Assembly: GCA_963758495.1 (NCBI GenBank)
Contig: CAVWVI010000001.1
Span: 32,001-96,000, forward strand
Length of the DNA: 64,000 nucleotides
Direction of reading: 5' to 3'
Origin: Oligoflexia bacterium
GTDB taxonomy: Bacteria > Bdellovibrionota > UBA1018
Part shown: positions 47,787 to 50,367 of the stretch, piece by piece
Layout of the letters: every line of letters starts with the position of its first letter
How positions within the stretch are numbered: position 1 is the first letter of the stretch
Translations under genes and position numbers: made by a program
The notes under the pieces: generated by a model
What the model was told of the DNA's origin: nothing
The model's input: only the letters and a program-made list of their open reading frames with translations
Database searches by the model: none

Positions 47787-48038
47787 ATGGCATCTGAAAA
47801 AACCACTTATACAAATAGTAGTTCTCCCAGCGCTCGGGTGGGTTCATTTTTAAGAGACAAGAGAATATCTGCAGGGGTTTCTGAATGGGAAATTCTCCAA
47901 TATATGCCCGACATGACTCTTAATGAAATTCGAGATTACGAATCGGGTCGTAAAGCGATTCCTGTTTCATATGTTTATGCTATGTCAAATCGACTTAATA
48001 TTGCTCCACAAGAAATCCAACAGTTGCTAAAAAAGTAG
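47787..48038 (+). CDS. XRE-family HTH regulator (start uncertain)
   Basis: GSFLRDKRISAGVS..IRDYESGRKAIP. Confidence 0.8.
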   Translation: MASEKTTYTNSSSPSARVGSFLRDKRISAGVSEWEILQYMPDMTLNEIRDYESGRKAIPVSYVYAMSNRLNIAPQEIQQLLKK

Positions 48039-48053
48039 TTCTCACCCTTCTGT

Positions 48054-48069
48054 TGGCACTTAAATTGCA
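48054..48069 (+). promoter_or_regulatory. sigma54 -24/-12 promoter
   Basis: TGGCAC-TTAAA-TTGCA, consensus match upstream of 48241. Confidence 0.8.
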
Positions 48070-48240
48070 AAAATCCATAAGAAATTCAAATACTCATCAA
48101 GGCAACGTGACGTTATAACGCGTCGGGCAGATTTTTAGGCAGATTTTAGTTAGTTTTTCTTAACTCAGTTATTTCAATTTTTAACCGAATAGATTTTTAA
48201 TTCGAAAAGAAAACTCAAGTTATGAAAGAAAACTCAAGTT

Positions 48241-48921
48241 ATGAAAACTGAACTGAATCAGCTAAAATACCTAGTTTTTCCTGGAGAAAATCCACAGGCT
48301 GAGTGGGAAAAGGCTTATATCGAAACTTATCGGGTATGGAGAAATGTCTGGTCAGCTACATTTCAGGATCTTGATGGAGATGGGACTCTATGTTCTGACG
48401 ATATGTGTCGTCAAACTATTATTGGAAGCATTATGAGGGAAAATCAATGCGTGGGTATTGGTATGCTCCATCGGTTAGATTTTCGTTTCCCTATGGCCCG
48501 TGCTGATTCATGGTTCAAGTCTTGGCCAGATTCAGCTATCGAAAAACTGATTGCCGAAGGATCGAGTGTTATGGTGTTTAGTAACGTCACAGTAGAACCG
48601 GATTATCGCGGTGATTTAGGAAATGGACTCCGACTTCGCAATCTTATTTCATCCATGATGTCCAAGACTTTTCTATCAACCGATGCCGATGTCATGGCGG
48701 GGAACGCGCGATGTGATCGAGGAGTCAACAAGGCATGCTACCTCGCAGGAGCAACTCATATTCAACCTAGCATTCTGCATGGAGTGCAGGTTGATATGCT
48801 CGCATTTTATCGGAGTCACCTTGAAAAAGAACACCGTTTTAGTTTTGCAGATGAATTACTTTGGAAAAACAGAGTTGTTTATAGTCAATCTCAGCAGGAA
48901 CTTTTGCGCAGGGCCGCATAA
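48241..48921 (+). CDS. GNAT-fold (LuxI/FeeM-like) putative acyltransferase
   Basis: N-terminal helix YRVW..VW, SDD, beta hairpin with CVG, SNVTVEPDYRG motif A, Y..GA. Confidence 0.6.
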   Translation: MKTELNQLKYLVFPGENPQAEWEKAYIETYRVWRNVWSATFQDLDGDGTLCSDDMCRQTIIGSIMRENQCVGIGMLHRLDFRFPMARADSWFKSWPDSAIEKLIAEGSSVMVFSNVTVEPDYRGDLGNGLRLRNLISSMMSKTFLSTDADVMAGNARCDRGVNKACYLAGATHIQPSILHGVQVDMLAFYRSHLEKEHRFSFADELLWKNRVVYSQSQQELLRRAA

Positions 48922-48932
48922 CTAAGGAGAAA

Positions 48933-49577
48933 ATGATGATCGATCTAATGGCACTCAATCGAGAAGAGCTGAATATAACACGTGAAATTTTTCTTAAATT
49001 TCCGTGGGAAAATCGCCAAGCTTATGCGGAATGGTTGGCTCAAACCTATTACATGGTGAATCATTCTACGCGACTAGTTGCGCTTGCTGGAGCTTACACG
49101 CCATTAGATCAGAATAATCTCCATGCTCGATTTGTAGATCATTCGAAAGAAGAGCGTGGTCATGATCGCATTGCAATCGCAGATATAAAAGCTCTTGGAT
49201 ACTCTATCGATGATTTCCCCTGTCTATATACTTCGGCTTGTATGTATCAGGTTCAGTATTATTGGGTTCAACATCGAGGCGCTGTTTCTTTTTTTGGTTA
49301 CACCTTAGCGCTAGAAAGCATAGCTTCCGAATTTGGGCCAGAAGTTTATCGTAGAGTTTTAGCTGCTCATGGAGAAAAAGCTACGGTATTCATGAAAATT
49401 CATACAGTAGATGACGTGGGTCACATGGAGAAGGCTATTAAGCAATTCGATAATCTTAATGAACAAGAGCGTACCCTAGTTGCTGAGAATTTACATCTTT
49501 CAGCAAGTATTTATCGAGCTATGTTGAACGAAATAAGACGCGTCGCTACCCTAAAAATGGACCCAAAAGCCGCTTAA
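48933..49577 (+). CDS. Heme-oxygenase-like diiron oxidase (iron-containing redox enzyme family)
   Basis: HSKEERGH, ALE, HTVDDVGH ligand set in an all-helical protein. Confidence 0.88.
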   Translation: MMIDLMALNREELNITREIFLKFPWENRQAYAEWLAQTYYMVNHSTRLVALAGAYTPLDQNNLHARFVDHSKEERGHDRIAIADIKALGYSIDDFPCLYTSACMYQVQYYWVQHRGAVSFFGYTLALESIASEFGPEVYRRVLAAHGEKATVFMKIHTVDDVGHMEKAIKQFDNLNEQERTLVAENLHLSASIYRAMLNEIRRVATLKMDPKAA

Positions 49578-49595
49578 ATGCTGAATAGAGAGATG

Positions 49596-49617
49596 TAAGC
49601 GCTAAAGGAAGTACTTA
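49596..49617. repeat. Short dispersed repeat copy overlapping a TAA stop
   Basis: taagcgctaaaggaagtactta. Confidence 0.6.
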
Positions 49618-50367
49618 CAGAGGGATTAAATTCAGATGTCGGCGCGGTAGTTCATATTTTTTTCTATCGCGCTGACTGCTTACGAGTTCACCGGTTTCTA
49701 AGAAAATGGTCGCACTCGGTTTAGAAGTCCCTTCTTGAAACAAGGGAGCGCCCCAATTCATCCCGACCGTGAGGACAAGTCGAGCTGCTGAGAAAGCCTC
49801 TCTTACCGTGTGGTTTGGAATATGCTTCAGTGAAACAGTCTTCTTGGTAACCCCTGAGAAAACATTTTCTACGAATTTAAGAATCATGGGTACAATGGTC
49901 TGATCATCCCTTGGAAATAAATCTGGCCAAGAGCCACAATAGAGCTCTTCGAGAGAGTAGCTACAGTATTGAAAAAAGCTAAAGGTTCTGAAAAGTTGTA
50001 TATTTTCGGATGAATAAACTTCGACCACCGTACAATCTTCCATGTGATTAAAGAGATCCGAAGGAGGACGAAGTCCAAGCTCTCTTAATGCTTGCCAGAT
50101 AAGCGCAGGTGAGTCAGTCATTTTTTTGTGCTGTGCTTTTGTATTTCTACAAATTTTTACGGACGTTTCTAGCGCATTCAATATTTCTCTTTGTTTCAAT
50201 TCCGTCTGTGTATTGAATAAGGGTAATGATGCTTCGTGAAAAGGAACTAGACCTACCCCTGCTTCACTCGCGTAACCGCGATATTCACAAGATAGTTCTC
50301 GAAATTTACTTGATCGTTTTAAGGCATTAGCCTTAAAAATTGAATTAATAAAAACGGATGAATTCAT
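49615..50367 (-). CDS. Stand-alone PAS-like domain protein
   Basis: VEVYSSENIQLFRTFSFFQYCSYSLEELYCGSWPDLFP matches PAS core spacing; no output domain. Confidence 0.6.
   Translation of the reverse strand: MNSSVFINSIFKANALKRSSKFRELSCEYRGYASEAGVGLVPFHEASLPLFNTQTELKQREILNALETSVKICRNTKAQHKKMTDSPALIWQALRELGLRPPSDLFNHMEDCTVVEVYSSENIQLFRTFSFFQYCSYSLEELYCGSWPDLFPRDDQTIVPMILKFVENVFSGVTKKTVSLKHIPNHTVREAFSAARLVLTVGMNWGAPLFQEGTSKPSATIFLETGELVSSQRDRKKYELPRRHLNLIPL

Follow-up and report, generated by a model that had tools for sequence, protein, structure and literature searches.

The question raised by the locus described here is whether four neighbouring genes of an Oligoflexia bacterium (phylum Bdellovibrionota) belong together and, if so, whether they make and sense a small molecule. 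The genes lie within a stretch of 64,000 nucleotides (assembly GCA_963758495.1, contig CAVWVI010000001.1, positions 32,001 to 96,000 of the forward strand), which is called the window throughout. They encode a putative acyltransferase with the GNAT fold of LuxI and FeeM, a heme-oxygenase-like diiron oxidase (HDO), a convergently transcribed stand-alone PAS protein and a small XRE-type regulator with a helix-turn-helix (HTH) motif. A first-pass annotation, made from the nucleotide sequence without database searches, had read this arrangement as a sigma54-driven system for an oxidised N-acyl signal, and the four genes as well as the promoter and leader features which it listed were all found in place (Table 1). 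We conclude that the four genes form a real unit, because the membership recurs in rearranged gene orders, in gene fusions and as repeated cassettes within one genome.

To describe this recurrence, the best 30 acyltransferase matches in 401 genomes of the phylum, taken with 1.5-kb flanks, were combined with loci found otherwise, which gave 48 distinct loci. An HDO gene is present in 34 of these loci and a gene for a membrane fatty-acid-desaturase-type enzyme, here called DES-A, in 10; the two never occur together, and one or the other stands beside the acyltransferase gene in 44 of the 48 loci. Among the four loci with neither, one sequence ends 110 nt past the gene and one encodes an acyltransferase fused to a flavin oxidase of the FAD_binding_4 family (L070:1-2175, minus strand). 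A PAS gene was found in 37 loci, mostly seen with flanks of only 1.5 kb, and an XRE gene in 13, a count obtained with short flanks and a weak profile seeded with four sequences. A search anchored on the PAS protein yielded 35 metagenome loci, 20 of which contain at least one enzyme gene, as do five of the eight for which 4 kb or more is available on each side. The co-occurrence of the PAS gene with the enzyme pair, on which the earlier reading depended, is thus borne out from both directions.

While the membership is kept, order and orientation of the genes vary, as seen by comparison of the window with loci L001, L006 and L008. The acyltransferase and the HDO also occur as a natural fusion protein of 434 amino acids (P0044), and in one genome (G169) the acyltransferase gene is present four times, every copy accompanied by an oxidase and a PAS gene of its own and three of the four by a visible XRE gene. 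The flanking genes are otherwise unrelated between loci. Pfam searches with 86 of the 111 flanking open reading frames (ORFs), the 25 omitted being mostly short, outermost or already scanned, revealed no additional family common to most loci. In genomes G169 and G371 an AMP-binding, adenylate-forming enzyme is encoded directly upstream of the acyltransferase with an adjoining MFS transporter gene (L076:8555-9871 and 7247-8464; L078:3267-4583 and 4675-5892, respectively for enzyme and transporter); a sister cassette has a 433-residue protein without a Pfam match in place of the AMP-binding enzyme, and locus L031 contains an SMR exporter gene. Such additions fit the production of a small molecule.

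The acyltransferase escapes assignment by sequence. The window protein gave no match to Pfam or NCBIfam beyond one Pfam hit at chance level, and none of 115 aligned members of its family matched any Pfam family at E ≤ 0.01. With the limit relaxed to E ≤ 10, FeeM (PF21926) was the sole family matched by several members (5 of 115, best E 0.011), all of them below threshold. Sequence comparison with the PDB led to chance-level matches only, both with the single sequence and with a profile of the 115 sequences. The family itself is large: a word-based search returned five proteins including that of the window, and an exhaustive profile search returned 784 representative relatives at E ≤ 0.001 and 103 at E ≤ 1e-30. 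Among the Atlas clusters that carry a name, FeeM and Acetyltransf_5 come closest, and in one neighbouring cluster 62% of the members are annotated as FeeM (score 0.93).

Structure prediction proved more informative. An AlphaFold2 (AF2) model of the window protein, built from five sequences with a predicted local distance difference test (pLDDT) value of 71.5, adopts the GNAT fold, and the top Foldseek matches of this model were RpaI, FeeM, BjaI, LasI, EsaI and TofI (E 1e-6 to 3e-5). Superposition by VIA-align gave the highest value for RpaI (Z 16.0, 187 aligned residues, root-mean-square deviation 3.0), followed by BjaI (Z 14.3-14.7, 191-197 residues), FeeM (Z 14.3, 172 residues), MesI (Z 13.4, 176 residues) and LasI (Z 12.2, 172 residues); ordinary acetyl-coenzyme A (CoA) GNATs reached Z values of about 11.5-13 over about 140-150 residues. 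A Z of at least 5 was obtained for 923 of the 997 chains compared, nearly all of which are GNATs. Within the family, R123 hardly varies; the sequence also contains the stretch YRGDLGNG, whose R-G-x-x-G-x-G loop after strand 4 we take to be GNAT motif-A-like. A tryptophan-rich helix and an acidic loop are likewise conserved (W33, W37, S52, D53 and R57), a region presumably equivalent to the N-terminal part of LuxI that binds S-adenosylmethionine (SAM). The GNAT call of the first-pass annotation, which was based on motifs, is upheld by the predicted fold. As judged from the model, the acyltransferase appears to have the LuxI-type variant of the GNAT fold over its whole chain, without being a member of the LuxI sequence family.

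The second enzyme is more readily classified. The HDO matches PF14518 with 37.9 bits against a cut-off of 28.9 (E 2e-9), and the residues E74, H77, E128, H157, D161 and H164 are invariant in 33 cassette HDO orthologues, so that the complete ligand set previously annotated from motifs can be accepted. The 11-bp gap between the acyltransferase stop codon, ending at 48921, and the HDO start codon at 48933 contains the sequence AAGGAG. A set of three histidines and three carboxylates is that of most HDOs, and characterised members act mainly on fatty acids or amino acids, according to a review (PMC13108848). The closest PDB entry to the HDO family profile was 3dde, a protein of unknown function (E 2e-19), and the second-closest solved relative was MboA (E 6.7e-7), followed by a CADD-type 4-aminobenzoate synthase (E 0.029) and UndA (E 0.23). 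MboA is described in PMC13185094 as a desaturase/acetylenase which forms an alkyne by repeated desaturation.

In some loci the HDO is exchanged for a membrane enzyme. Two classes of membrane fatty-acid-desaturase-type genes were distinguished. DES-A, with 30-67% identity within the class and 20-28% to the other class, occurs only where the HDO is absent; DES-B accompanies the HDO in five loci and DES-A in one. All full-length sequences contain three histidine boxes (HxxxH, HxxHH and HxxHH), and the copy of locus L008 matches PF00487 at 8e-33. A gene of this type is not present in the window. On a quick IQ-TREE phylogeny of 47 acyltransferases with several long branches, the label HDO or DES-A needs eight changes, at least five of which are forced by starred branches, and it is not clustered on the tree (shuffled mean 9.0; 116 of 500 shuffles as low). 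The exchange is most evident in two loci of one genus with the same gene order, L060 and L061: sequence identity is 62% (139/224) for the acyltransferases and 54% (87/162) for the PAS proteins, and L060 carries DES-A and L061 an HDO. We read this swap from the compared sequences as a non-orthologous displacement, and displacement in situ would mean that the two oxidases perform an identical or nearly identical task on a lipid-like substrate. UndA and UndB offer a parallel, with one function served by a soluble HDO and by a membrane desaturase-type enzyme. The in-situ replacement of an HDO by a desaturase-type enzyme is new here. Apart from these two classes, a third desaturase-type gene, encoding 385 residues, lies next to the HDO-type cassette of locus L012 (2736-3893, minus strand; PF00487, 9e-19); it was missed by the desaturase search, and the number of DES-B-like accessory genes is therefore a lower bound.

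For the PAS protein an AF2 model with a pLDDT value of 91.4 was obtained from 21 sequences. It consists of two long N-terminal helices (residues 3-35 and 56-78), forming a hairpin of about residues 3-78, and a PAS fold of about residues 85-235. The sequence matches no Pfam family at E ≤ 1. The best domain-sized Foldseek matches were the PAS-B domains of HIF-2a, ARNT and BMAL1 and LOV domains (template modelling score to target 0.55-0.71). In a VIA-align comparison with 48,161 chains the best 50 matches listed were all PAS or LOV proteins, with a best Z of 6.9; two receptors of quorum signals, the structures of RpfR PAS with the Burkholderia diffusible signal factor (BDSF; Z 5.0) and of VqmA with 3,5-dimethylpyrazin-2-ol (DPO; Z 4.9) were also matched, and from Z values of this modest size only the PAS fold can be read. 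The protein has no output domain, and the convergent gene described earlier as PAS-only is in place.

The XRE protein of the window matches HTH_3 (PF01381) below the cut-off of 23 bits (17.6 bits, E 0.0039), while XRE proteins of other cassettes pass HTH_3 or HTH_31, with 30.1 bits in L001, 38.5 bits in L013 and 51.6 bits in L024. The window protein is also 34% identical to the XRE protein of cassette L006. An XRE gene, noted upstream at first, is a recurrent cassette member. A complex prediction for the PAS and XRE proteins (score 0.00, mark 0.32) weighs neither way on their binding.

The enzymes have a C-terminal tail in common, with lysine or arginine at positions -5 to -3 followed by two small residues, mostly ending in alanine. 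It was found in 37 of 45 acyltransferases (82%), 28 of 35 HDOs (80%) and 9 of 15 desaturase-type proteins (60%), in none of 45 PAS proteins and in 3 of 22 XRE proteins; 66 of the 115 members of the wider acyltransferase family carry it, as do 104 of the 2403 ORFs of at least 200 codons in the window genome (4.3%). In the acyltransferase model the last eight residues have pLDDT values below 50. Two classes of C-terminal ClpX degrons, C-motif 1 and C-motif 2, with MuA and ssrA as examples, are described in PMC12723719, and clpX is present in the genome. The enzyme tails resemble such degrons and may be of the ClpX type, a role in docking or sorting being equally conceivable. Common to three unrelated enzyme families, the tail offers a lead of its own towards docking or regulated proteolysis.

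The acyltransferase family was detected in 144 of the 401 sampled genomes and in 69 of 204 genera; among genomes at least 90% complete, 135 of 336 contain it. Its distribution is uneven, with 49 of 53 genomes in one family against 5 of 57 in the family of the window genome. Carrying genomes have one to four copies, those of genus g118 one to three, and in the window genome the acyltransferase and the PAS protein are each encoded once. For both proteins, the closest Atlas clusters consist of hypothetical proteins and are commonest in Bdellovibrionota. A genome scan with acyltransferase alignment A1 pointed to one named record with such a locus, a metagenome-assembled genome of the Pseudobdellovibrionaceae, and a metagenome scan with the same alignment gave 61 pattern matches and no relative.

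On this basis we propose, with moderate confidence, that the locus is a self-contained cassette, typical of Bdellovibrionota, which makes and senses a small lipid-like molecule, namely an oxidised acyl amide. The acyltransferase would transfer a fatty acyl group from the thioester of acyl carrier protein (ACP) or CoA onto an amine, which could be, in the manner of FeeM, an amino acid or, in the manner of LuxI, the amino group of SAM. The diiron oxidase would then desaturate, hydroxylate or oxidatively decarboxylate the same molecule; this step would fall to the soluble HDO in the window, and elsewhere to the membrane desaturase-type enzyme or, once, to the fused flavin oxidase. The stand-alone PAS protein would bind the product and act with or on the small XRE protein as repressor or activator, thereby controlling transcription of the cassette and perhaps of other genes. 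If the enzyme tails, missing from the sensor, confer a short life by ClpXP-type proteolysis, production would track transcription closely. Transcription of the enzyme operon in the window genome appears to start from a sigma54 promoter that is served by a remote activator. The product may serve as a signal. From the earlier overall reading, the LuxI/FeeM-like fold, the PAS partner, the recurrent XRE gene and the HDO ligand set are retained, and the sigma54 site and the leader palindrome, which are not conserved, drop out of the definition of the cassette.

Several observations weigh against this proposal. The autoinducer synthase family PF00765 is absent from the families matched by the 115 acyltransferases even at E ≤ 10, and an hhalign comparison of the family profile with TraI of pTiC58 gave a probability of 0.24%, a value lowered in sensitivity by the single-sequence TraI template; the confidence of the acyltransferase model itself is middling. 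The PAS fold matches are modest and silent on the ligand, and the protein has no output domain. The XRE gene is found in few of the acyltransferase loci, as counted above. Furthermore, enzyme genes are absent from three of the eight well-flanked PAS loci (L023, L024 and L043), two of which, L024 and L043, are PAS and XRE pairs, and several loci of family f22 with HDO and acyltransferase genes have no PAS gene within 1.5 kb, so that the link between PAS and enzyme genes is frequent and not obligatory. Finally, regulators encoded nearby are also a feature of ordinary metabolic operons that are inducible.

A more far-reaching version of the make-and-sense proposal can be advanced only tentatively, as a possibility short of an even prospect: predatory Bdellovibrionota might here have their first system of cell-to-cell signalling of their own making, with a new class of oxidised N-acyl amide autoinducers, a synthase of the LuxI/FeeM fold, an interchangeable diiron oxidase, a split receptor composed of PAS and XRE proteins, synthases timed by degrons, and orthogonal cassettes serving as private channels that coordinate predation or the switch between attack phase and growth phase.

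The best surviving alternative, which we regard as rather unlikely, is that the enzyme pair yields a specialised metabolite, for instance an N-acyl amino acid antibiotic, or a modified membrane lipid, for instance an aminolipid whose chain is desaturated or hydroxylated, and that the PAS and XRE proteins respond to a different cue, which might be oxygen, redox state or a prey-derived compound. Such products would agree with the presence of FeeM, an N-acyl amino acid synthase, among the closest folds and with the replacement of the HDO by a membrane desaturase-type enzyme, which fits a lipid substrate, but neither a second acyltransferase nor a known aminolipid head-group enzyme was found among the 86 flanking ORFs scanned. 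The MFS and SMR exporters and the adenylating enzyme of some loci suit a metabolite. Redox state or oxygen is the cue for many PAS domains, and those of NifL, Aer and MmoS are among the fold matches; up to four complete cassettes in one genome, each with its own PAS gene and mostly with an XRE gene, are nevertheless more typical of cognate signal and receptor pairs, and the PAS and XRE pairs without enzyme genes resemble orphan receptors.

It appears improbable that the cassette modifies or inactivates a compound from outside, such as a prey signal, an amine or a fatty acid, and that the PAS and XRE proteins sense this substrate and induce the enzymes. GNATs often detoxify amines, yet the acyltransferase is nearer to the long-chain acyl synthases of the LuxI type and FeeM than to the detoxifying acetyl-CoA GNATs, by Z value and by aligned length. 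It is common for an inducible operon to have a regulator that senses the substrate, and the hosts, as predators, encounter metabolites of their prey, but constant pairing with an oxygen-dependent diiron oxidase of biosynthetic classes is untypical of detoxification. A mere neighbourhood by chance, with no common function, is hardly credible for a set which recurs in rearranged orders over 48 loci, with fusions and repeated cassettes per genome. A separate candidate, a toxin-antitoxin system of the GNAT type, was rejected: PADLOC gave no match for any of the four proteins, the acyltransferase is LuxI-like in size and fold, and an oxidase constantly accompanies it.

The cassette shares some features with several known systems and differs from them in others. 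Quorum sensing by LuxI and LuxR through N-acyl homoserine lactones (HSLs), as represented by RpaI, BjaI, LasI and TraI, is similar in the synthase fold, with RpaI as the best structural match, in the adjacency of the synthase gene to genes for ligand sensing and DNA binding, and in the possibility of several cognate sets per genome. It differs in that the cassette acyltransferase lacks membership at the sequence level, that an oxidase (HDO, membrane desaturase type or flavin oxidase) is an obligatory partner, and that the receptor would consist of a helical-hairpin and PAS protein plus a separate XRE-type HTH protein instead of LuxR; LuxR-type domains were found neither among the window neighbours (XRE, PAS, ankyrin and PorV-like) nor among the flanking ORFs scanned. 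FeeM synthases from soil environmental DNA clusters resemble the acyltransferase in fold and represent the only Pfam family with repeated weak matches, and in the FeeM cluster the acyl amide is tailored by further enzymes. The matches to FeeM are all below threshold, however, and the HDO or desaturase-type, PAS and XRE partners as well as the taxon are different. The HDO belongs with 3dde, the peptide side-chain desaturase/acetylenase MboA and the fatty-acid decarboxylase UndA by its PF14518 membership and its ligand set, but unlike for MboA no MboB-like redox partner was seen. VqmA and RpfR likewise use a PAS fold to sense a small-molecule signal, a likeness at the level of the general fold only; their output domains, an HTH or GGDEF-EAL, are fused, whereas the cassette PAS protein stands alone and the HTH resides on the XRE protein.

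A family with the LuxI/FeeM fold that is invisible to Pfam and NCBIfam, and that is almost always accompanied by an oxidase and usually by a sensor in a phylum of predators, deserves attention. No description of the cassette was found in the literature, subscription-only papers aside, and no characterised HDO paired with a LuxI/FeeM-fold enzyme was found there or is known to us. If the acyltransferase makes a signal, the coordination of behaviour among predators becomes directly testable. The cassette would also contribute a novel HDO reaction together with a clear hypothesis on its substrate, a natural example of mutual replacement between a membrane desaturase-type enzyme and a soluble HDO, and a new receptor design composed of a PAS and an XRE protein. 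As stated in a comparative-genomics preprint, no acyl-HSL synthase genes are predicted in Bdellovibrionota and other factors may serve quorum sensing (10.1101/2020.11.01.364414).

Table 1. Features of the cassette and of its immediate surroundings in the window
Feature	Position	Strand	Remark
PorV-like outer-membrane gene	46789-47703	-	flanks the cassette
XRE-like HTH gene, 83 residues	47787-48038	+	alternative longer frame from TTG at 47676
Exact sigma54 -24/-12 consensus, TGGCAC-N5-TTGCA	48054-48069	+	motif match
Leader	48070-48240	+	171 nt from motif end to acyltransferase ATG
Palindrome, 10 bp	48111-48120		in the leader
Direct repeat, first copy	48126-48135		in the leader
Direct repeat, second copy	48138-48147		in the leader
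Perfect 19-bp tandem duplication	48206-48243		covers the acyltransferase start codon
Upstream ORF, 9 codons	48222-48251	+	out of frame
Acyltransferase gene, 226 residues	48241-48921	+	LuxI/FeeM-fold GNAT of an unnamed family
HDO gene, 214 residues	48933-49577	+	heme-oxygenase-like diiron oxidase
PAS gene, 250 residues	49615-50367	-	stand-alone, sensor-like; convergent with the enzyme genes
Sigma70-like promoter match, TTGAAA-17-AATAAT	50433-50461	-	10/12; ahead of the PAS gene
Ankyrin-repeat gene, 462 residues	50492-51880	-	flanks the cassette; C-terminal Ank_2, 4e-28; N-terminal part without family

The description of the enzyme operon as sigma54-driven has to be restricted to the window genome. 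The site ahead of the acyltransferase gene has the GG-N10-GC core and fits TGGCACN5TTGCW exactly. Two such exact matches occur in the window, where 0.08 would be expected, and the genome contains eight, against 2.6 expected from base composition. Five of these eight, including the present one, precede an ORF and are not contained in a long one, with distances of 16-38 nt from motif to ORF at the other four versus 171 nt here. The genome encodes rpoN and 17 strong sigma54 activators, and no gene for an enhancer-binding protein is present in the window. In the 46 other distinct loci, a search for GG and GC cores with at least 10 of the 11 specified bases up to 400 nt upstream of the acyltransferase gene revealed no comparable site, the best being 9/11 in L062. 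As the site is not conserved in these loci, it is plausible as a sigma54 promoter in the window genome alone, and it is not a defining part of the cassette.

The second exact match in the window, at 35635-35650 on the minus strand, is antisense within an ORF (35206-35913), and no ORF of at least 80 codons follows within 400 nt downstream. Identical sigma54-consensus matches within a 480-residue open frame were further noted on two contigs of G000 (C1:318505 and C2:123368), which indicates a repeated element or a duplicated gene. The 10-mer TAAATTGCAA at 48061-48070, of which the sigma54 -12 element is a part, has a perfect inverted copy at 47736-47745 upstream of the XRE gene; this pair could be an operator half-site or a matter of chance, with a few tenths expected by rough estimate.

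The leader contains the 10-bp palindrome CGTTATAACG which had been noted at first; palindromes of this length are not rare by chance (roughly 60 per 64 kb), and it is not conserved elsewhere. Just 3' of it, the sequence GGCAGATTTT occurs twice as a direct repeat, 12 nt from start to start. The ATG of the first copy of the tandem duplication opens the short upstream ORF, which overlaps the start of the acyltransferase gene. The palindrome, the direct repeat and the tandem duplication were not found conserved in other loci, nor was a perfect 6+6 inverted repeat upstream of the acyltransferase gene common to the 18 loci inspected. In five loci, palindromes of the form CTTAA-N(0-10)-TTAAG lie directly upstream of cassette genes (L012:198, L024:4416, L049:1365, L053:1417-1425 and L065:623), and two further matches lie inside genes (L001:1524 and L049:3159). 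This palindrome, absent from the window, may be the operator of a cassette sub-group. The sigma70-like site ahead of the PAS gene is a consensus match only; the region contains 8 matches of this kind, no more than the 9.2 expected. The sequence AAGGAAA precedes the ATG of the XRE gene.

Among the neighbouring genes, the ankyrin-repeat gene was not seen adjoining the cassette in other loci. The GC content of the cassette, 0.37-0.42, is close to that of the genome, 0.42, and hence gives no sign of recent import. Farther downstream, an EamA-type transporter gene (51877-52782, minus strand) is followed, 2.5 kb from the cassette, by an IS630-like transposase gene (52855-54212, minus strand), which is split into two overlapping frames that encode an HTH_32 part (53622-54212) and a DDE_3 part (52855-53631).

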